Shown here: piece by piece, positions 6,501 to 32,702 of the stretch
Numbering within the stretch: the stretch's first letter is position 1
Layout: each line of letters starts with the position of its first letter
NCBI GenBank assembly: GCA_002633005.1
Contig: NMRA01000030.1
Location: 1,136,052-1,168,753 of the forward strand
DNA length: 32,702 nucleotides
Source of the DNA: Phoronis australis
Lineage: Eukaryota > Animalia > Phoronida
Direction of reading: 5' to 3'
The notes under the pieces: model-generated
The model's input: only the letters and a program-made list of their open reading frames with translations
What the model was told of the DNA's origin: nothing
Database searches by the model: none
Made by a program: the position numbers and the translations under genes

Positions 6501-7882
6501 CACCAAATAGACGATATGATCATTCTAGCTAAAAATTGCAATATTTTATTTTACTATTAATGATAACAAGGACAATCATTGTGATTTATACGTGTTTTCA
6601 GTGTTATTTATTAAAAAATCTTGGCTAAAGTTACACTGGATAATAAGTCAGTTCCAAGAAATATGGTATTTCACGGGCTGTGACCACATTGACCAAGTCT
6701 TCCGCCTTTCCCGCTTTTCTTTGTTTCGGACTAGTCCACAAGTTCTTTTGTGCATGACCACATGTCGTATTCACTGTGACATTTTCTCTCTTGAATGCCA
6801 TTGGTCAACATCTGCTGCCAGAGCACCCAGAGGTAGACTAAACTTAACCTTAAATTCAGGATAATAACAGCATAGGAAAGAGAACATTTATTAATGTTCG
6901 TCTGTGAAACTGCTTTTATGCTCTGAAAATTTGCTTGCCACCTGGCGACCGGCAAGTGAACTTCTACTCACCCAGCACCATTTTTACTTGTATTGGCAAC
7001 TGGGTGAGTGACTGAGCCCCTCGGCTTTTTTGGGAGGGGCTACAACACTCCCTATCGGTCTCTGTGTTTATTTCCTTCCATGTATTTTAGACAGGCAGTA
7101 GTGCTAATCTGGTCTCCAAATAAGACATTTTCACCTTGTCAAAAATACATTCTACAATAAACATTATCACTTACTGTACTTGCTTCAGTCAGTATTTCTG
7201 CTTCTATCCGTGCAGACATATCAATGATATCACTGATGAACCATGTACTTTTATAGATACATTCATATCATTGATGAGCCATGCCCACAAGAATTAAGGT
7301 GAATTTGGTGAAGAATGTCAACTCCACTTTTATTAGTTGCCCTCAACTTTTTCCCCGGGCGTGCAATCACTGTCATGTGTAATCAGTAGACTGATCCATG
7401 TGACCTGGCGGCTGACATTTACAAAGAGTAGCATATATATATGTGAAGATATCTGCAGGAATGTTGCAAGATTTGTGACTCTTGGACTTCGTGTGGACTG
7501 GCGTGGTTTTGCATATATTCAAATTATGTTGACCACATTTTGTCCAAAGTCCTGGCATGCGTTAAAATTTGCAGCTCAGCACCTGTTATGCATTTTCCGT
7601 TGGATGTTATTTGGTGGCCATTTAAAAAATTTTGAATACGTTTTTGACATCGCTTCTTTTTCTGCCCAACTGCTAAAGTGATCACTATAAAATTATGGCA
7701 GTTGTGTTTCTAACGAGAAGAATACAGCTGATGTTGATCTTCAGATGGGTTTGACTATTCTGACACCCTGCCCCCCTAGTGGCATTTTTGTTTTTTCGTT
7801 GCTTACAGTATCAAATAAACTTGGTGTAATTAGAAGGAAGACGTCGAGTCCGTCACACCAACATTTTCGTGTGCTCACATAT

Positions 7883-8697
7883 TTATATTTGGATGCATTA
7901 TGCTGTCATCCACGTCCGGCGTCTGCTGCTCTATCTCCTAAACCCTTTGAGGTATGTTCATGAAATTTTGCATGTGTTCATTTCATGGATGAGCTGGCAT
8001 AAGTGAACTTTGGGATAGATTCAACTACCGGTGTGCCCCCTAGTGACAATTTTAGTTTTTTACCACTTCTGTATCTTCAAAGATCTTCAACAGATTTCCA
8101 AAAAAATTGGCATATAGGCATCTATTAATGTGATGAAGCTATCCTCCCGTTTTCGGATGGATTCGAGATACTTTTGCGCCACCCGCTGGCTACTGTTACT
8201 GTTTTCGTTTTTGGAGTCCACCCCTCTATTAACCAGAGCATTCTAGGATGATTTTCAAAATTGGCAAATGTATATGTTCTCCGTGTGAAGAAGACAGTTG
8301 ATGATGGCGACTTCGACTATTGTGGCACTTCTTAGTGGCAGTTTTGTTTTACGTCCATAGCTCTATCTCCTAAACCCACTGCAGAATCTTTATTGAATTC
8401 AGAAGTTAACAACAGACGGCTACGACTTTCAGACAGATACCATGAATGCTGTGCCTTCTAGTGGCAATCTCATTTTTTTCCGATTTCCTTTGTTTCGCTA
8501 ATTTCCTTGGCTGCTTTTTATGAAATATGTTATATAACTTTCTATTAAAAAATGATGGCATGTACCCGATTTTGGATGGATTCCACATATTTTGCGCCAT
8601 CTAGTGGCCCCTTTTGTGATACATATAAACAAGCCTAGAAGCACACCATCTGTGGTGCATTCATAGGCAGATTTCAACGCTCCGCATTGCTCTTGTT
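7883..8697 (+). mobile_element. Helentron/HINE (DINE-1-like) non-autonomous element, copy A
   Basis: 5' gcattatgctgtcatc..cgtcc block, ~145-bp core repeats, 3' hairpin caacgctccgcattg followed by ctcttgtt; homologous to copies B and C; a decayed core unit also at ~7720-7800. Confidence 0.7.
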
Positions 8698-10413: not shown

Positions 10414-10507
10414 TCGATGTGGCTTTATGATGAAGAAGTTCAGGGTATGATTCAGAGAGAGATTACATATGTTCCAGGCCTGTACAAGATATTTGATGAA
10501 ATTCTTG
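10414..10507 (+). CDS. TOP2: TOP2 exon (ATPase domain)
   Basis: ttacag acceptor, gtgagt donor; 94 nt, SMWLYDEEVQGMIQREITYVPGLYKIFDEIL(V); phases 0/1 fit the neighbours; too short for the ORF track. Confidence 0.96.
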
Positions 10508-11026
10508 GTGAGTGGACAGTCGAAAATAAGACTGCATGTTTAAATCAAAAGCTGTAATTGTGCTCCTTGTCTAGACTTGTTGCCTTGGTAGTGTAATAAA
10601 ATATGACCCACAGGTTTGGTTGTTAGGCAGGGACACTAAATTTGCTGACTTAAAATTGCATCTGATATTTGCACAGTACTACTGTATTAGCCCCAATAAG
10701 TGCTCAGGGCGCTTAGAAAAATTCGCTTCAGGAAAGAGGTGCTTATTATAGCCCACAAGTGGTTGAAACCCAGTCTCCGAAACAGGTGAAATATTCAGCT
10801 AGAATTCATCAAATTTATGCTGTGTGACGCATTTGTAACCTATGACAGTTTCTACAAAATTGCTGTGCATTGCTATCAAACTTTGTTGTTAAATACAATC
10901 ATTGTTCAGGAAATCCCAGTGTGGATTTTAAAGTTCGCCGCGTGGATTAGGTCTATAGTGACATGTATTAATCATGATTATATCATTGTACCAAAAAATC
11001 ATGTAATTTTTTATTCTTCATTGTTA

Positions 11027-11811
11027 GGGCTGTTCCAGTAAAATCTGTGTGGGAGGGGGGGACAGCAGTAGAAATAAAAATTCATGGGTGGTGGTCTTCA
11101 GAAAAAAACACAAATTATGGGTGGTCGTTCCTGTAAGAAGTGGTGCTTAAAAAATGGGTGGTATTTTTTGTCCTGTTAATGTTGACAGGTTGGTTACTTC
11201 AGCCCTCAAAACTCAAAACAAACCAATACAAAAAAGCCCATATTGCTAGTGAACAGAGTGCACTATGTTCACTAAGCCATTAATCAAGTCATGGGCAACT
11301 TGATTTGAGCCAACTGCAGTCCTATTGAATTGAAAAGTTATGCAACACTAAACTGGTGTTAACACATGTAAGAAAATTAATGATTTTTAAATAAAAATTA
11401 TGAGGAGTAAGATAAACAAGTTCCAATATTCACTTAACATAGAAGTATAAAAGATATCGTGGAGACAGTTTGAGATTCATAGATCCTTATAATTGAAAAA
11501 AATGTTCATTGAAATTATAGACACATGGTGAACAGAGACACCTGGTGGCTGCCAAAAGTATTGCTCACAGGCTACTTTAGTTTTTGACAATGTTGGACAA
11601 GACAACTAGTTCTTGTCTGTCAATCATCTAAGTTCTTAACAGGTCCTCCTGGAGCCAGTTTGTTTGCAAGTGTTGGATTTTATATTTTAACCTATTAAAA
11701 ATAATTAAAAAATGGGTCATGGGTTGGAGAAATAAATGAAAAATATGGGCGGTGGGTACGAAATAAAAGTGCCTTCCCCCCACTCCCATACAGATTTTGC
11801 TGGAACAGCCC
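11027..11811. mobile_element. PIF/Harbinger-like MITE
   Basis: TIRs GGGCTGTTCCAGTAAAATCTGTGTGGGAG / CTCCCATACAGATTTTGCTGGAACAGCCC; 3-bp TSD TTA (11024-11026, 11812-11814). Confidence 0.85.
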
Positions 11812-12255
11812 TTACACAACTCCTTGTTAAATCATAGATTATAGACAACAGATTCGCAACTCCGGCATATTCTTACGAGCTGAGTTGACCTCTCCTGACC
11901 TATCTGCTGCAGTTTCCGGTCAGTTTTAATTTGACGAGAAATACCTGCATCTACTTTACTGTCCAAAACAGCGAAAAAAACATTAATTTATATTAATTTC
12001 GGTATTGAAACGCTCTTCAAAATCTTTCAATAGTAGAAGTGTTGGTATTGTGAGTACTTTTGGCAATGCTACTGGTAATTAATTTCAAAATTCAAACTTC
12101 GGTTCCGACCCTTTATGTCGTCTGCTTGCCCAATAGCAGCATAGTTATCGGACAGTTTTTGATTTACGGTTCACATAGGCCTACTGAGAAAACTACGAAA
12201 GCGTGTTTATAAATCAACATTCTCAAGTGAGCAGTTCTTCTGGGCAGTGTTGAGT

Positions 12256-12271
12256 GGCCCTTAAAAGGGCC
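12256..12271 (-). terminator. Histone mRNA-type 3' stem-loop 2 with HDE-like element
   Basis: Minus strand CCAAC-GGCCCT-TTTA-AGGGCC-ACTCA, with flanks close to canonical CCAAA/ACCCA; purine-rich CAGAAGAAC 13 nt further on (12234-12242). Confidence 0.85.
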
Positions 12272-12296
12272 GTTGGTTGTAGGTATAGCGTGAAAT

Positions 12297-12312
12297 GGTT
12301 CTTAAAAGAACC
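12297..12312 (-). terminator. Histone mRNA-type 3' stem-loop 1
   Basis: Minus strand TCAAC-GGTTCT-TTTA-AGAACC-ATTTC: 6-bp stem, 4-nt loop, fits GGYYYU-UYUN-ARRRCC; 10 nt after the PHD stop codon. Confidence 0.8.
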
Positions 12313-12322
12313 GTTGAATAAT

Positions 12323-12640
12323 TCAACATAAATCACACAGTATGCCATGCTCACTCAAGTACTGAAGGTCCTCTTCATTAAAGTTTTCATCTGGAAAGGT
12401 TGGATGAAAACAGAGGAGATGACAATATCGATGACAGTTGTAACACCTTAGATAGATATCACCGTTCACCAACGTTGTCACGAACCCTGCATCGTTCAGT
12501 TCTTGTTCCTGTATCCACAAATAATCCTGAACTGTAGGAAAAAAATGACAAACAACACAACGAATCAAATTTCGAAAATCATCGCCTTCGTACGATTCCG
12601 TGTTGCTGTCACCAGACTGATGTTCTTCCCCAACGTCCAT
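12323..12640 (-). CDS. Intronless 105-aa PHD-finger-like protein (C4-H-C3)
   Basis: ATG at 12640; acidic N-terminus, then CVVC-x34-CYNC-x4-H-x2-C...CDLC-stop; all eight Zn ligands present, no disablements. Confidence 0.75.
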   Translation of the reverse strand: MDVGEEHQSGDSNTESYEGDDFRNLIRCVVCHFFPTVQDYLWIQEQELNDAGFVTTLVNGDIYLRCYNCHRYCHLLCFHPTFPDENFNEEDLQYLSEHGILCDLC

Positions 12641-12918
12641 CGTAAAAAATCGACGTTGCAAGTGATGGAAACTTGTCTACGCTCTCGTCCTTTGTTTCTA
12701 ACCTTTAACCCATTTTTTAATAAAGGGGTGTACTGTTTTTGGCTCATGTTGATAGTGCATAATCTATGATTTTACAATGTATTAATAGTGTTAAATGCAT
12801 ATATATGAACTGGTCTCATTGAGGTGCACAGCAAATAAATTAACTATAACAAATTAAAGTTTTGAAAATATAAAGAGCAGTAACAGACTCCCTAAAAATT
12901 AGGCTTGTTTTCGAAAGG

Positions 12919-12966
12919 TTTGCGCCATTGGTGATCCGATTGGTTCAATCGCTTGCGGCGGGAAAA
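12919..12966 (-). promoter_or_regulatory. E2F/CCAAT motif cluster upstream of the PHD ORF
   Basis: TTTTCCCGCC on minus strand (12957-12966), two CCAAT on minus strand (12927-12931, 12939-12943), TTTGCGCC on plus strand (12919-12926); TATATA near 12800. Confidence 0.5.
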
Positions 12967-14482
12967 TTGATAGACCCAGTTATTGTGCGCGTGTACACTG
13001 TATCAATGCTTTGTATCTTATTCTTATTTGTCTAATCTGTTGATACAGTAAATTTCCTTATTTATGCCCATCCTGATTTAACCCCGACTTGAGCTCCTTG
13101 GGTTTTACCATATTGGGGCTGTCCAGGGACTCACGTGCATGCGCGCACCCAGTCTTCAAAATGGGGGGCTCGAATTCCTGACGTTATGGAACTGTTGTTA
13201 ACAAGAGAGCGGGCAGACCTTTTTGCCCACTTCGCCAAATGGGGGGGGCTCGAACCCCCCCCCCTCTGAGTGGCGCACATGACGTGGTGCTTACTCGAAT
13301 GAGTTTCATTTTAGCGGCTATTTCCAATTGTGTAGGTGAAGTAAATTAACAAAGTGGATGATTATCATCACCGGTATTTCATCATTAGTATTTTTGTCGG
13401 CCTCTCAAGTTTTCCGTGGCTAGGGATTGTCACATCTGTAAGGTAGACGTGTTTCAGTGAACCTCCATGTTTGTGGCGTTATTTATACCTGACCAAACTT
13501 TGAAAAAGAAGCCCGCGTTTAAACCAGGAGCTGCATTGGGTGCAATTTGTGTAGACGTTTCATGCGCGCACCCAGCCTCTAATACGGGGGCTCGAATCTC
13601 TGGCAAAGTGGACCTTTTGCTAACAAAAAGCGTGAGAACTAAAATAAAAAACGGGGTGCTGCCGTATTGTGGACTTTCGTCTCTTTCTCTTGGACTTTTC
13701 CCCTGGGTGCGCGCATGCGTTTGTCTACGTTGCTAGTTTTTATAAAGGTGGGCCTGTCTGTAGCCAACTACGGTAAATTCATAAAAGGTCACGTGCAGTG
13801 CAACTCAAGTTCATTACAAATTAAAAATCCGAACTTTCAAACCGTTTGATCTGAGTTGACATCTCAAATCAAAATTATGAAAATGCCACATAAAAGTATG
13901 AAATTGAAAATTAGCACACGTCAGCTTCACGTCCCTACCACCCCCTTTATCTTGCTTGCTACCTCTTAGGGTTCATTTCCCTTGCTTCCGAGGTTTTTCG
14001 TTATTCTGGTATTTTCATAGACTGCAGCGTACTTGGCTAAGATGGTTCAAGTTTTGTGCGGCATACAGTCGACATAAATAATTGAGTATGTAACCTGCTG
14101 TTGAATTGCGGGATAGATTTTGACAGGTCCAGGTATTTATTTCTGAAGTATTAATGTAATCTTTATTTATGTTAAAGGTTTTACTAGCGTCCTATTTATT
14201 TGTACACGAATGTGAATTTGTTGAAATCGCTGATCCAAATCCTGGCCAAATCTGCGCATTATGCTGAGACCAACCGTCTGATCAGGGCCACCTAAGAGTA
14301 ATTTGGTTAATTCGCTCACTAGACTATGGCTGAAGGTCCTCGTAAGGACAAGAGTTCACCAGTCACTACCATTGGAAGAAATTTAGCGGACATTTTTCGT
14401 CAAAAAGTTTACCAGATAGTTTTCATCAAAACGGAGAAAAGAAAAATGGATTTGTGAAGACAGGATTAAGTAGTAGGCCTAC

Positions 14483-14688
14483 CAGAGCCTCTTAAAAAAC
14501 ACCCATCTTCGAAGTGTCGTGAACAAATGTATGAGTTTTTTTTTGGAAGAAAAACTTCCATTCACGTCGACGCAAGAACATAACTTTTTCTCCCAAAGCG
14601 GATTTTGTGGTCTTCGTACACTATGGAAGCTAACGCCTCTGCATTTCGCCTGCGTAGCCGAACAACCGGCCACACAGCAACCGACCAT
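14483..14688 (-). pseudogene. THAP-domain exon (transposase N-terminus) with one frameshift
   Basis: MVGCCVAGCS...GVSFHSV...LWEKKL, then after a one-base slip in an A9 run (14536-14544) NSYICSRHFEDGCF; followed by a G|gtaggc donor-like site; no catalytic domain found. Confidence 0.8.
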
Positions 14689-14957
14689 GATTAGCAGACG
14701 ACGTACTTGCCGGAAATTACACCAGATAATTGAGCCAGGTGTCGCCAGTGAATAATGACGTAAAGGCTTGTGCGTAAGACCACAGATTTCGTCCATTGAA
14801 AGTAAACGGAGTTGGCGGTCCATGTACTATAGTCTATGGTTAAATGGAGGGTTTTAATAAAAACTTTTCATCTGCAATGGCTTTAGGACGGCAAATGGTT
14901 TTCAGGCTCAAAATATTGGATTTTTTCCACAAGACAATGTCATGTTAATTCACTACT

Positions 14958-15387
14958 CAGTACTTGATTTGGGGACCTGCGGGTCGCCAATGTGATCTCA
15001 GATTGTGTTTGGTGACCTGGGAAATATTTTAAGTCGTCACTAAGTCACCAGTGAAAATAGCAAAGTCAGACATCAGACAATAATTCCCTCTAAATTCATT
15101 TCAAAGTGCGTATTGACTTCCAAACTTTATGTTACTAACAGTATTCCAAGATTACCTTTGATTCACTATTGTTCTGTTTATTTTGTGAAATTAGTGCATT
15201 TGTTACCATGTTTAAATTACAAGAGGAAGTAAAACGCTACGGCCATCCAACTTTTTGGTCAGCAAACTTACGACACCAAGTGCCTGTCCAAATTTTCAGT
15301 TTCGCAACCTTAGATTTTGTTTGGTGACCTGGGATTTTTGCCAGGTCGCCAAATGCGACTTGGCGTTTAGCTAAGTGTCTACTGCTG
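14958..15387 (+). mobile_element. hAT-like MITE, copy 1
   Basis: Starts cagtacttgatttggggacctgcgggtcgcc, carries ggtgacctgg/ggtcgcc subterminal repeats; both ends homologous in inverted orientation to 16167-16760. Confidence 0.6.
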
Positions 15388-15626
15388 AAACTTTACTTTG
15401 GCATAGACAGTGTTTAAGTACAGAATGATGAGATGTCATAAAATGGCTCACGTTGACAAAAGTTCATTTTGACTTAAAGTTCATAATATTGATGGTATTT
15501 ATTATTTTCCTGCTGAAGTTACATTTTCGTAGAAATTAATATATTTGTCGACTCTCCTTTGAGTCGTTAGTGTAGATTGACAGACTAGTCCTTCATGTCT
15601 ATTTTGTACTTAATTCTCTATTTTAG

Positions 15627-16760: not shown

Positions 16761-17521
16761 CATTAAGAACACTGCTGACAGCCCCGACTACTTAGGCACC
16801 GCCTAGTGATAATTTTCCGCTGTTGGATATCCTAAACCCTTTGCATGATTCTTGTGAACTGGCATGTGTATTTCTTTGAACGTGTCGATAAATGATGACT
16901 TTTGGATGGATCTGAATACTGCTGTTTCAATCTATTGTTAGTTTCAGGAAGAAATTCCTTCGTCAGAATATGGCAAAAAGCCTTGACAAATTGTGCCGGA
17001 CTTAATTAAATGTAGGGGTGTGTTGTGGGAATGTGCCACCACCAGTTGCTTTTCTGACAAAATTGGCTCCTGTAGCATGCCCTTTTGGCAATTTTAGTTT
17101 TCAACAAGATAATTGTCAAAACTTGACAGAATTTTTTTAACAAGGATACAGGTGCATGGCTGCCAGGGCTGGGATGTGTCAACATTAGTTAGTTTCTAAG
17201 CTTCTAAATTCAGTGTACCAGTTTGCTTTCTTGGGACCAAAGCTAGACCATTGCGTATAATTCAGCTGAGTCCTGGTACCTGTCATGCAAACCTTTACAT
17301 GTTTGTTTCATCTTTCCAGTGTAAAGAATAATCGCTGCTCTACGCTTAAGTGTACTTGTCTTGAGTGTTTTTACTTTGCTATGTAGTGTGAACCACATTT
17401 ACAGTCAATTTTTCTCGTAAGTCATGTTTTTCAAAAAATATCAAAATGTATTTCTGGAGCTCAAAAACATTTGGAAACCCCCTATAGTGTCCATTGTCTA
17501 CATTGGCTATCTTTGCTTTAG

Positions 17522-17856: not shown

Positions 17857-18079
17857 ATTTTCCCACACAGGGATATGTAACAGTCATTGTAAGAGATTTG
17901 CTAAAAATCTTAATTCGTTCGAGTTCTTTTTGCAAAATAACGTGGGTACATGAATATTTTATCCTATATGGAAATGAAAGGCACATTGCCGTTTTATGGC
18001 AGAGGCAACATGACTATTAGTGGCTCGATTTGACATTAATTAGTGTCTTGTGTGGTACCTAAGTCAGTAAAGTTGTGAG

Positions 18080-18336
18080 TAGTACAGCCTGTTCATACAG
18101 TCTCAGTCACTGTGAAACGTATGTGGTCGTAATGGTTATAAATAGTACAGCCTGTTCATACAGTCTCAGTCACTGTGAAACGTATGTGGTCGTAATGGTT
18201 ATAAGTAGTACAGCCTGTTCATACAGTCTCAGTCTCAGTCACTGTTACACGTAGGTGGTCGTAATGGTTATGGGTAGTACAGCCTGTTCATACAGTCTGT
18301 GTATCTGTCACACGTAGGTGGTCGTAATGGTTATGG
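18080..18336 (+). repeat. 63-bp tandem repeat (4 units) spanning a TOP2 splice acceptor
   Basis: Units start at 18080, 18143, 18206, 18275; each ends in cgta(t/g)gtggtcgtaatggttat, the acceptor plus the first exon codons. Confidence 0.92.
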
Positions 18337-19369: not shown

Positions 19370-20682
19370 CATATGACTTATGTTCATGAAATTTTGCGCA
19401 TGTCTTCCTTTCATGGATGGGACGGCATGATCGAACTTTCGGACGGATTCGACTACCGGTCGGCCTAGTGGCAATTTTAGTTTTTTATGCTTACCTCTAT
19501 ATCTTCAAAGGTCTTCAGTGTATTTTCTTAAAATCTGGCATGTAGGCATCTATTAGTGAGATGACGCTGTCCACACGTTTTGGGATAGATTCGACATAAT
19601 TTGCGCCACCTAGTGGCCATTTTTACTGTTTTCGAGTATGCTTTTTGTTGTCCACCCCTCTATCAACCAAACCACTCTAAGGATGGTTGTGGAAATTGGC
19701 ATGTATGTTCTTACCATGTAGAGGACGACTGACAATGATTTTCCGATGATTTCGGCAACTGTGGCGCCTCCTAGTGGCAGTTTTTTTTTCGCCTATGGCT
19801 GTATCTCCTAAACCGTCTGCAGGATCTTTATTACTAAATGTAGTAAGTACATTTATATGATGTTGACAAAGGACGATGACGACTTTCGGACGTAGTTGAC
19901 TACTGCTGTGCCCCCTGGTGGTAATTTTATTTTTTTTCAAGTTAACCTCTGTATCTTCAAAGGTCCTCAATGTATTTTCAAAAAATTTGGCATACGGGCT
20001 TCTGTTAGTGTGGTGACGCTACATTTCCGTTTTCAGATGGATTCGACGTAGTTTACGCCACCTAGTGGCCATTTTTACTGTTTTCGAGTCTGTTTTTTGG
20101 CGTCCACCCCTCTATCAACCAAATCGCTTTCAGGATAATTGTGAAAATTGGCATGTATGTTTTTTTTTTATGAAGTGGACGGCTGACAATGATTTTCTGA
20201 TGACTTCAGCTGATGTGGCGTCTCCTAGTGGCAGTTTCGTTTTTTGCGCTCATGGCTGTATCTCTTAAACTGTTTGCAGAATCCTTACTAAATTTAATAA
20301 GTGTATTTATATGATGTTGACAAAGAACAACAACGACTTTCGGACGGATCTGACTACTGGTGTGCCCCCTGGTGCCAATTTTAGATTTTACTTTTACCTC
20401 TGTATCTTCAAGTGTCCTCAACGGATTTTCATAAAATTTTGAATACAGGCATATGTTGGTGGCAGTTTTTATTCTATTCTGTTTTTTTTTTGTTTCTCTG
20501 AAGTTCCGTGACAGATTTCTATGAAATTTGGTGAATAGCTTTCTATTAAAGAGGCTATGACATCTTCCAATTTTTAGATGAATAATACGTTTTTGTGCCA
20601 TCTAGTGACCATTTTTATGACCAAGAAACAACCCTTTCGATGCATTCGTGGGCGCATTTCAACGCTCCGCATTGCTCTTGTT
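19370..20682 (+). mobile_element. Helentron/HINE-like element, copy B
   Basis: ~450-bp higher-order core repeats; same 3' end gcgcatttcaacgctccgcattgctcttgtt as copies A and C. Confidence 0.72.
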
Positions 20683-27929: not shown

Positions 27930-29785
27930 TATTTTATATGTGTACGCATTATGCCGTCATCTCCGTCCGGTGTCCGGTGTCCGCCTTAACGTATGTTCCT
28001 GAAATTTTGCTCATGTGTTCCTTTTGTGAATGGAACGGCATGAGCGAACTTTCAGATGGATCCGACTACCGGTGTGCCCCCTAGTGGCAATTTTAGTTTT
28101 AGTTTACCTCTGTATCTTCAAAAGTCCTGCATAAAATTTGGTATATTGGCACCTATTAGGGAGATGACGCTATCCTCCGGTTTTCGTATGGATTTGACGT
28201 AGTTTGCGCCACCTAGTGGCCATTTTTACTGTTTTCGATTCTGTTTCTTTGCATCCACCCCTCTACCAGCCAAACCGCTCAAAGGATGATTGTGAAAATT
28301 GGCATGTATGCTTTTACTATAAAGTGGATGGCTGACGATGGTTTTCTGACGACTTCGACTACTGTGGCTCCTTCTAGTGACAGTTTTGTTTTTTGCACCT
28401 ATGGCTGTATCCCCTAAACCATTCGTAGGATCTGTACTAAATTTAGTAAGTGTATTGACATGATGTTAACAACGGAGAATGACAACTTTCAGACAGATCT
28501 GACTACTGATGTGCCACCTAGTGGCAATTTTATTTTTTTACGTTTACCTCTGTATGTTCCAAGGTCTTCAACGTATTTTCATAAAATTTGGCATACAGGC
28601 ATCTGTTAATGAGGTGACGCTATCTCTTCATTTTCAGATGAATTCGACCTAGTTTGCGCCACCTAGTGGCTATTTTTACTGATTTTGAGTCCGTTTTTTG
28701 GGGTACACTCGTCTATCAAACAAACGGCTTTCAGGATAATTGTGGAAATTTGCATGTATGTGTTTACTATGAAGTGGACAGCTAACGACGATTTTCCGAT
28801 GAGTTCAAATACTGTGGCGCCTCCTAGTGGCAGTTTTGTTGTTTTTGTGCTCATGGCTGTATCTATTAAGCCGTTTGCAGGATCTTTACTTAATTTAGCA
28901 AGTGTATTTATATGATGTTGACAATGGACGATGACGACTTTCGGACGGATCTGGTGTGCCCCCTAGTGGCAAGTTTAGTTTTTTATGTTTACCAGTCTGT
29001 ATCTTCAAAGGTCCTCAACAGATTTTCATAAAATTTTGATTATAGGCATCTATTGGTGAGATGACGCTATCATCCTGTTTTTGGATGGAATCGAGGTATT
29101 TTGCGCCACCTGATGGTCATTTTTGCTGTTTTCAAATCTTGTTTTTGACGTCCACCCCTCGATAAACCAAATCATTCTAGGGATGGTTTTGAAAATTGGC
29201 GTACATGTTTTCAGTGTGAAGAGGACGTTTGATGATGGTGAGTGACTACTGTGGCGCCTCCTAGTGGTAGTTTTGTTTTGTTTTACGTCCACAGCTGTAT
29301 CTTCAAAACCAACTACAGGATTTTTANTGTTACCAGAGCACCCATTTGATCCCAGTGGGTCATTTGTGGCCCGTAATTAAAAATGCTAGTAAAACTAATT
29401 AAAATGAAACAATCTCACCAAAACTCCAACTTATCTTCATAAAGTTGTCATATCTGTCATTTACTTAATTTTTGAAGCAAAAAAAAAAGTTGGGCATAAA
29501 TGGGTTAAATTTAGTAAGTGAATTTATATGAAGATAACAGACGACGACTCAGGCGGATGGAATGGACGCTGTGCCCGCAAGTGGCAATTTCATTTTGTTC
29601 TGTTTTCCTTTTTTTCTCTGAAGTTCCTTGACAGATTTATATGAAATATGGTATGTTCCCGTTTTTGGATGGATTGTACGTTTTTGCGCCATCTAGTGGC
29701 CATTTTTATGATACAAATAACCCTAAAAGCACACCATTTGCGATACATTCATGGGCGCATTTCAACGCTCCGCGTTGCTCTTGTT
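27930..29785 (+). mobile_element. Helentron/HINE-like element, copy C
   Basis: 5' gcattatgccgtcatc + gtcc-rich repeat, three ~450-bp higher-order units, perfect 3' hairpin CAACGC-TCC-GCGTTG then ctcttgtt. Confidence 0.75.
29341..29504. mobile_element. Possible piggyBac-like MITE remnant inside copy C
   Basis: CCCATTT...AAATGGG followed by TTAA on the right; left flank disrupted and close to an N at 29327. Confidence 0.4.
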
Positions 29786-29786
29786 C

Positions 29787-29921
29787 TACACTGTTAGTTG
29801 TAGGTACAATGTTGGTTGTTGCTACATTGTGTGTTGTAGCTACATAGTTTGTTATAGCTACATTGTTGGTTATAGCTACATTGTTGGTTATAGTTACATT
29901 GTTAGTTTTAGGTACATAGTT
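29787..29921. repeat. 18-bp minisatellite, ~7.5 copies
   Basis: Consensus tacattgttggttatagc. Confidence 0.9.
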
Positions 29922-31207: not shown

Positions 31208-31462
31208 TTGCTGTTGAATGTTACAGCGTTTATCTAACAAATCACTTTTTTCGGTGTTAGTTGCAGAAATTTGTTTCAATTTATTACTTGATTTTAAGGA
31301 TTGGATGACTTGACATTTTGAGGCGGAATATTGGTATATAACCAACTTAAACATCAACATTGGAACACATATAAATCTGCTATCATGATTAATTGTTTCA
31401 GCAAGTTAATCATAGGTGAGAAGAACTATCCTCTTTGAAACGTGATGTCATGTATGTGAGGA

Positions 31463-31700
31463 AGGGGCTGGGGTGTACTTAAATATACAGTAAGGTGTGA
31501 TAGGGCCTGGGGAGCACTTAAATGTACAATAAGGAGTGATAGGGGCTGGAGTGTACTTAAATATACAATAAGGTGTGGTAGGGGCTAGGGTGTACTTAAA
31601 TGTACAATAATGAGTGATAGGGACTGGGGTGTACTTAAATATACAATAAGATGTGATAGGGGCTGGGATGTACTTAAATATACAATAAGGAGTGATAGGA
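31463..31700. repeat. 39-bp minisatellite, 6 copies
   Basis: Consensus aggggctggggtgtacttaaatatacaataaggagtgat. Confidence 0.92.
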
Positions 31701-31848
31701 CCAATTTTGGGTTGAGACCACATAACCAAGATTTTGTATCTTACTAAAGTTACTACAAGCTTGCCTTAAATCAATAAAATGTCTTTATCTTGACCTTTTG
31801 TTGCTACAAAAGTGGTTCCTTACTCCTACAAGAAGTGATTTATGAGTG

Positions 31849-32300
31849 GTAAGAACTGCTAGCCCTTAATTACTTGAGACCATATTCTGAATCTGTGTGT
31901 AAGAATTTGTAGTCCTTGATTACTTTAGACCATACTCTGTATCTGTGTGTAAGAATTTGTAGTCCTTGATTACTTTAGACCATACTCTGTATCTGTATGT
32001 AAGAATTTGTAGTCCTTGATTACTTTAGACCATACTCTGTATCTGTGTGTAAGAATTGGAAGTCCTTGATGACTTGAGACCATACTCTGTATCTGTGTGT
32101 AAGAATTTGTAGTCCTTGATTACTTGAGACCATACTCTGTATCTGTGTGTAAGAATTTGTAGTCCTTGATTACTTTAGACCATACTCTGTATCTGTGTGT
32201 AAGAATTGATAGCCCTTGATGACTTGACACCATACTCTGTATCTGTGTGTAAGAATTTGTAGCCCTTGATTACTTGAGACCATACTCTGTATCTGTGTGT
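31849..32300. repeat. 50-bp minisatellite, 9 copies
   Basis: Consensus gtaagaatttgtagtccttgattacttgagaccatactctgtatctgtgt. Confidence 0.95.
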
Positions 32301-32437
32301 ACCGTATAACAACATGCCATAACTTGCCTGGCATCAAGCTGTTATGAATTTGTTACGTAGATCTTCCCCAACCAAGAAATCGGTTGTAAAGAACAACTTG
32401 AGACGAGCATTGTATTGGTAAATGGTCTCCATCAAAA

Positions 32438-32702
32438 CATAGATTATAGACAACAGATTCGCAACTCCGGCATATTCTTACGAGCTGAGTTGACCTCTAA
32501 TGACCTATCTGCTGCAGTTTCCGGTCAGTTTTAATTTGACGAGAAATACCTGCATCTACTTTACTGTCTAAAACAGCGAAAAAAACATTAATTTATATTA
32601 ATTTCGGTATTGAAACGCTTTTCAAAGTCTTTCAATAGTAGAAGTGTTGGTATTGTGAGTACTTTTGGCAATGCTACTGGTAATTAATTTCAAAATTCAA
32701 AC
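32438..32702 (-). mobile_element. Second copy (left end) of the P-like element, truncated by the window edge
   Basis: Colinear with 11833-12097, 5 substitutions counted in 265 bp; similarity starts exactly at CATAG. Confidence 0.93.

Follow-up and report, generated by a model that had tools for sequence, protein, structure and literature searches.

We suggest that a PHD accessory gene carried by a P-like DNA transposon ends its message as replication-dependent histone genes do: the distal of two hairpins behind its stop codon is likely – at a probability that we place near one half – to be an SLBP- and U7-processed, non-polyadenylated mRNA end. The hairpins themselves are real: two of them stand on the sense strand right behind the stop, far beyond chance expectation. 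In favour of this reading are, in addition, stems that differ by paired changes only, the lack of any histone remnant in the element and sense RNA over the open reading frame (ORF); against it stand antisense RNA, no pile of read ends among those listed at 12251, seven of seven related loci with no hairpin, an HDE that is a near-match, and a downstream ATTAAA. Whatever goes beyond the anatomy we infer. A sequence-only reading of the window (the whole stretch of 32,702 nucleotides analysed here) had proposed the arrangement; its anatomy and its PHD-type transposon gene stand, while use of the SLBP/U7 pathway is set down here as a prediction, in view of RNA on both strands, the near-match and a spacing that is canonical for hairpin 2 only.

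The element and its surroundings

The window holds part of an animal topoisomerase II (Top2) gene on the plus strand, with a Toprim domain match further on; its exon joint 10506 to 15626 is found spliced in the RNA of runs X9 and X10. The claim that the PHD gene is carried by a transposon was confirmed by an element with the same seven bases on both flanks (Table 1). We call it P-like and non-autonomous because its ends, its 7-bp duplication and a putative, broken THAP domain recall 1360 and Galileo, and because no core was found: among all 81 stop-free pieces of at least 24 amino acids in the element (11833–14838) there is no transposase core after the THAP domain, and no P-type DDE core was found in this copy. 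The second half of the THAP domain lies below the Pfam cut-off (E 0.0076, 17.4 bits, cut-off 23.9). A conotoxin-family Pfam match (E 0.0014) to an out-of-frame piece of the element is ascribed to chance, as are the other weak Pfam rows. The CATAG with which the element starts fits CANRG, which we take to be a motif of the P superfamily. Terminal inverted repeats are shared with that superfamily (P, 1360 and Galileo), and 7-base duplications and an N-terminal THAP domain are features of its members 1360 and Galileo, according to the available part of PMC3698922; the present element differs in its missing transposase core and in its PHD gene with a histone-type end, which that part of the paper does not describe for P elements.

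Table 1. Features in and around the element (positions in the window)
Feature	Position	Strand	Basis or remark
P-like DNA transposon, non-autonomous, 3,006 bp	11833..14838	-	termini and target duplication; in Top2 intron, its genes antisense to Top2
Target-site duplication, 7 bp, GTTAAAT, left copy	11826..11832	.	flank comparison
Target-site duplication, 7 bp, GTTAAAT, right copy	14839..14845	.	flank comparison
Left terminal inverted repeat, imperfect	11833..11864	+	11 of first 12 bases equal right end; also 8-base block at 25-32
Right terminal inverted repeat, imperfect	14807..14838	-	comparison with left end
Broken THAP domain, two frames	14469..14688	-	C-x-x-x-x-C start from 14688 (by eye); CSRHF part 14561-14469
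PHD-type finger gene, stand-alone, intact, intronless, 105 aa	12323..12640	-	no internal stop; acidic N-terminal SGDSNTES stretch
Histone-type stem-loop 1	12297..12312	-	stem starts 10 nt after stop; RF00032 22.8 bits
Histone-type stem-loop 2	12256..12271	-	stem 51 nt after stop; RF00032 34.8 bits; predicted SLBP site, predicted cut after 12251
Purine-rich HDE-like stretch	12234..12242	-	after five bases following hairpin 2; GAAGA 16-20 nt past stem
ATTAAA, variant poly(A) signal, possible alternative end	11925..11930	-	about 390 nt after stop
Candidate promoter motifs	12717..12943	-	consensus matches only: CCAAT 12943, 12931; TATA-like 12805, 12787, 12722
Internal occurrence of the first 10 terminal bases	12759..12768	-	120 nt upstream of ORF, facing left end
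Second insertion of the element's left end	32438..32702	+	5 differences in 265 bases; different flank; window ends before hairpins

The 3,006-bp element is repeated and its copies are young; selection at present therefore does not follow from an intact ORF and intact hairpins. Of the 17 bins overlapping the element, 16 are covered by contigs of run X1, whereas both Top2 exon bins lack them. One piece of that run, spanning 12214–12509, differs at three positions (12245, 12283 and 12372), none of them in a stem or loop. Since three differences would all miss stems and loops by chance about seven times in ten, this piece is evidence of another sequence that carries the cassette and no sign of selection.

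Two shorter forms of the element can be considered. Reads joining 12063 to 14670 (15 in each of X9 and X10) show a deleted derivative of about 400 bp, with neither gene nor hairpins. The internal copy of the terminal bases, together with the left end, would bound a 936-bp sub-unit comprising only the PHD gene and its hairpins; RNA depth falls near 12759–12768, no target duplication surrounds that copy, and the 936-bp part might move alone.

Other repeats surround and interrupt the element. Short high-copy repeats are nested within it at 13065–13290 and 13561–13718 (13138–13204 resembles 13561–13626), and RNA depth exceeds 100 on both strands at the repeat 13065–13243. An older, abundant miniature inverted-repeat element (11022–11816), whose 40-bp arms are 90% complementary, stops 16 bases short of the P-like element. 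A dispersed repeat at 7762–8616, 16776–17128, 19399–20620 and 28012–29711 consists of units of about 450 bp with recurring GC-rich cores, several per intron, and the Top2 introns also hold tandem arrays (29768–29921, 31456–32351 and 18035–18334) that repeat every 18, 39, 50 or about 63 bases.

Hairpins and 3′ signals

The hairpins stand as the sequence-only reading described them: in tandem, the first ten nucleotides behind the stop, with 25 nt between the stems, and with stems that differ at two pairs, both sides being changed in each. A strict histone stem-loop pattern, run over both strands of the 32.7-kb window, matches these two hairpins and nothing else, against an expectation of 0.0009 per window under an order-2 Markov model; both occur in the minimum-energy and the centroid folds (z −3.4; none of 200 shuffles reached that stability). 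Inverted repeats are common in transposons, and 228 pairs in the window would suit chance hairpins, or DNA hairpins that serve transposition and have no role in RNA. Given that two strict matches were found where so few are expected, both in sense orientation behind a single stop and with flanks that fit the Rfam model too, we regard this explanation as highly improbable.

Scored against the Rfam histone model, the two hairpins part company. Hairpin 2 (12276–12230) lies just above the RF00032 cut-off of 34 bits and is the window's one Rfam match to reach its cut-off; hairpin 1 (12317–12285; E 0.002) falls below, its stem and loop matching and its 3′ flank not, so the assignment proposed for both is upheld for the distal one. 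Both have a G-C at stem pair 2 and a U at loop position 3, which the available text of bioRxiv 10.64898/2026.10.14.759114 gives as diagnostic, together with a stem-loop 25–60 nt after the stop. Hairpin 2 falls in that range, its 5′ flank lying 46 nt and its stem 51 nt behind the stop; hairpin 1, with a distance of 10 nt, does not. Cleavage in histone mRNAs falls 5 nt after the stem, in the literature as far as available. Hairpin 1 has no purine-rich element of its own and is likely not a cleavage signal.

A purine-rich stretch does follow hairpin 2, as claimed for an HDE-like element, but its core is a near-match only, GAAGA and not AAAGA. With the U7 box, UCUUU in the available part of PMC5054213, GAAGA would pair via one G-U where AAAGA pairs fully, the box being a generic one and not the species' own U7. 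As AAGA is present in 8% of the 18-nt windows of this DNA, the purine stretch taken alone is weak evidence.

No AATAAA lies downstream of the ORF within the element, as had been noted; an ATTAAA, however, does, at 11930. This signal suits an alternative in which SLBP binds and no cleavage follows: the transcript would run to ATTAAA and be polyadenylated, with the hairpins acting as translation or storage sites or as an SLBP decoy, or both kinds of end would be used, as in H2A.X. The weak HDE agrees with such a role, and so does hairpin 1, too near the stop and with no HDE; H2AFX, moreover, binds SLBP (PMC4604434, in the part available). Yet hairpin 2 has the 5-nt tail and the purine stretch of a cleavage site, and we consider binding with no cleavage to be decidedly unlikely.

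A further alternative is that the hairpins are passive cargo: one or more pieces of histone 3′ flank, captured by repair or template switching, would by chance have come to lie behind the PHD ORF, and the RNA would be host read-through. DNA hairpin repair can yield paired stem changes in the absence of selection, and young copies are what passive cargo would lead one to expect. Leftovers of a captured histone gene had been named as a finding that would count against the sequence-only reading; no histone family, and hence no coding remnant, occurs in any of the element's 81 stop-free pieces of at least 24 amino acids. Strand, spacing and the order of stop, hairpin and purine stretch are, moreover, all correct, and the diagnostic positions are kept in both hairpins. 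We judge passive cargo to be somewhat unlikely.

The cassette that we favour as a likely histone-type end shares these features with a metazoan replication-dependent histone gene: a short intronless gene, a 6-pair stem and 4-nt loop, the G-C at pair 2 and U at loop 3, a 5-nt tail, a purine stretch and the spacing of hairpin 2. It differs in its product, which is not a histone, in its place inside a transposon, in the number of hairpins, of which there are two, in an HDE core of GAAGA instead of AAAGA, and in that its processing is predicted.

The PHD-type protein and its transposase-linked relatives

The ORF is as first described, an intact, intronless C4HC3 frame of 105 codons on the minus strand (12640–12323), with all eight ligands (C28, C31, C66, C69, H74, C77, C102 and C105) and no internal stop. 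The name PHD stands by family and fold and fails by Pfam on the window protein alone: PF00628 gives E 0.88 and 10.1 bits against a cut-off of 24, and a long insert separates the first two ligand pairs. The best structural match of the protein model (pLDDT 81) is MLL1 PHD3 (Z 4.8, rmsd 2.5, 59 aligned), with PHD named in 19 of the top 20 titles; the best Foldseek match is MLL3 PHD6 (E 0.032), and no Foldseek match to the model is below E 0.001. In an atlas comparison the best scores, 0.90, fall to unnamed clusters and those of PHD clusters are 0.85–0.88, which we treat as leads only. With scores that are modest but consistent, the modelled protein takes the PHD fold. Histone reading is putative and not established, given the weak Pfam score, the modest Z and the SLX1 C-terminal finger as another weak match. 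A Trp before the His ligand of PHD fingers is linked to methyl-lysine binding; the window protein has Tyr at the site where its relatives P0006 and P0023 carry Trp.

A search of 1.84 billion representative sequences gave eight matches at E≤0.001, of which P0008 (long and repetitive) was left out, and a profile search gave 23 matches among 467 candidates, one of them named from the mussel Dreissena. Across the 25 aligned sequences the zinc ligands are invariant or nearly so, and HP[TS]FPDE and an N-terminal S-D-T-E-S are kept. Pfam PHD touches 22 of the 25 members (E≤1), PHD_NSD 20 (best E 3.2e-7) and SLX1_C 15. Identity to the window protein is 30–41%, with the exception of P0002 at 59%; in this closest comparison 10 of 20 differences are conservative against 30% expected (p 0.044), which lends weak support to long-term constraint on the protein. 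P0002 is itself missing one zinc ligand. Like the window protein, P0002, P0006 and P0023 stop at the last Cys; most transposase-linked relatives carry a C-terminal tail that the window protein does not have.

The nearly invariant S-D-T-E-S stretch of the family N-terminus (S-N-T-E-S in the window, 12640–12590) resembles the SDT motifs that, when phosphorylated by CK2, recruit NBS1 and other FHA/BRCT repair proteins. By analogy, it may point to a link with the repair of transposition breaks.

Relatives with their surroundings came from a metagenome scan, which returned eight loci; seven were kept, and L010, a 28-residue match, was dropped as chance. Viral-contig loci L001, L002 and L011, PHD-alignment matches of 10 to 38 residues, were also put down to chance, and none of 85 pattern matches in prokaryote genomes proved a relative. 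Three of the kept loci have an ATG 2 nt after the PHD stop (L004:1836-4006, L005:2120-2868 and L006:1-2462). In L004 and L006 a long ORF starts there that folds like DDE transposases/integrases; a transposase-like core occurs in the downstream coding sequence of L003, L004 and L006, and the Dreissena protein continues into the same transposase sequence. The 2-nt layout is unusual for animal mRNA and suggests reinitiation or PHD-transposase splicing.

For this downstream transposase, 966 candidates include 305 homologues at E≤1e-20, from molluscs, insects and fish. D99 and D176 are invariant in 51 sequences, Pfam DUF7869 matches at E 2.4e-6, and the model (pLDDT 89) shows a DDE/RNase H fold, with matches to Metnase, IstA, Mos1 and retroviral integrases (best E 7.5e-4). 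Its motifs are presumably those of Sola1. In a tree of 27 rows a long branch (100/100) unites the window protein with P0002 and falls among transposase-linked proteins (96/92), a position made unsure by the length of the branch.

On the evidence of these alignments the PHD ORF is a transposon accessory gene, one of a stand-alone small PHD-fold family that in relatives sits next to a DDE transposase. DUF7869/Sola1-like DDE transposons of molluscs and other animals encode its closest relatives, with the same ligand spacing, HP[TS]FPDE and S-D/N-T-E-S; they differ in that the transposase begins a few bases behind the PHD ORF, and no stem-loop is found there. PHD fingers that move with a mobile element are also seen among transposon-borne chromatin readers, PHD or chromo domains fused to transposon proteins (bioRxiv 10.1101/2021.11.30.470311, in the part available), whereas the window PHD is a separate small gene with a histone-type 3′ signal.

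None of the seven related loci has a histone stem-loop (no Rfam match at E≤1), a result that suits passive cargo. These seven exclude the short-type relatives P0002, P0006 and P0023; and L004, L006 and L008 appear to be copies from a single family, the seven perhaps coming from one host, so that the number of independent cases is few. Judged from these sequences, no lineage but that of the window has so far shown the histone-type end, and the pairing of gene and hairpin is thus not shown to be conserved.

Transcripts and a predicted histone-type message

Three stranded RNA runs (X9, X10 and X11), of the same species label, were mapped at 88% likeness in 179-base bins; about one fifth of each run was read, depth sums all element copies, and library selection is not given. 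Strand was fixed from Top2 exon reads, a first mate on plus meaning minus-strand RNA. There is RNA on both strands across the whole element. In the two ORF bins sense/antisense depth is 40/21 and 37/25 in X9, 31/8 and 22/19 in X10, and 4.5/7 and 0.3/7 in X11, with sense depth just upstream of the ORF at 11, 11 and 0.04. These depths show transcription of the cassette; in two of the three runs, which belong to one study, sense RNA over the ORF is somewhat in excess. RNA on both strands over the whole element is what passive cargo within host transcripts would give; the sense excess over the ORF in two runs speaks against it.

In the hairpin bin sense/antisense depth is 21/29 (X9), 34/17 (X10) and 1/5 (X11), and in the bin past the hairpins, where short deleted copies contribute part, 40/38, 43/35 and 9/16. 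The sense RNA past the hairpins in X10 would agree with SLBP binding and no cleavage, but copies inside host transcripts, like all others, add to the read-through depth. A pile of read ends at 12251 is not among the ends listed for X9–X11, which are 12282 and 12028 with six molecules each. RNA-seq reads do not reach histone 3′ ends, according to the available part of PMC4604434.

The account that we prefer, a histone-type end at hairpin 2, would run as follows. The PHD gene would have come from another, Sola1-like transposon group, in whose two-ORF unit it takes first place. On its move into a P-like element it would have lost the downstream transposase, probably needing a 3′ end of its own for that reason, and would then have gained one of histone type. 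SLBP would bind hairpin 2, with hairpin 1 as a spare site; U7 would pair with the GAAGA stretch, and CPSF73 would cut after 12251. The message would be stable and translated only where SLBP is plentiful – in S phase, oocytes and cleavage embryos – and the protein may act on chromatin, helping the element family to transpose or to escape silencing during germ-line replication.

More tentatively, and at odds that we would put a little short of even, invertebrate DNA transposons may make genuine SLBP/U7-processed, non-polyadenylated mRNAs from accessory chromatin-reader genes; their activity would thereby be linked with S phase and with the eggs and embryos in which SLBP abounds, and poly(A)-based transcriptomes would not show them. 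The PHD gene would then offer a case in which one can follow how a histone-type end was acquired, since its relatives stand ahead of a transposase and have no such end. Messages of replication-dependent histones are described as the sole cellular mRNAs that end with no poly(A) (PMC4604434 and PMC5054213, available parts), and SLBP targets in HeLa cells are histone mRNAs only (PMC4604434, likewise). If the proposal is true, a transposon gene with a histone-type end breaks this histone-only rule, mobile DNA has a means of making a protein just when germ-line and embryonic cells replicate, and one class of transposon transcripts escapes poly(A)-selected data.

That the arrangement was not known to have been described held good among the titles and abstract openings listed, on histone 3′ ends with transposons and on Sola with PHD or transposase: none describes a PHD gene with a histone-type end on a transposon, in a scope outside which most subscription papers and Repbase reports lie. 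The available parts of PMC10954484, PMC13525598, PMC5751038, PMC5753468, PMC10294476, PMC6431247 and bioRxiv 10.64898/2026.08.17.745202 contain no such case. In the same literature scope no description was found of a stand-alone PHD family travelling with DDE transposons of two kinds, which the supplementary list of bioRxiv 10.1101/2021.11.30.470311 may hold.

Among viral contigs the histone stem-loop pattern was met with at two loci, unrelated to the element. On a 16-kb contig of the viral collection (L013), histone stem-loop-like matches at 1658–1690 and 2634–2679 score 30.3 and 19.8 bits, both below cut-off. Both lie inside one open frame of more than 1,300 codons that resembles an RNA-virus polyprotein, and are perhaps captured host histone mRNA ends.
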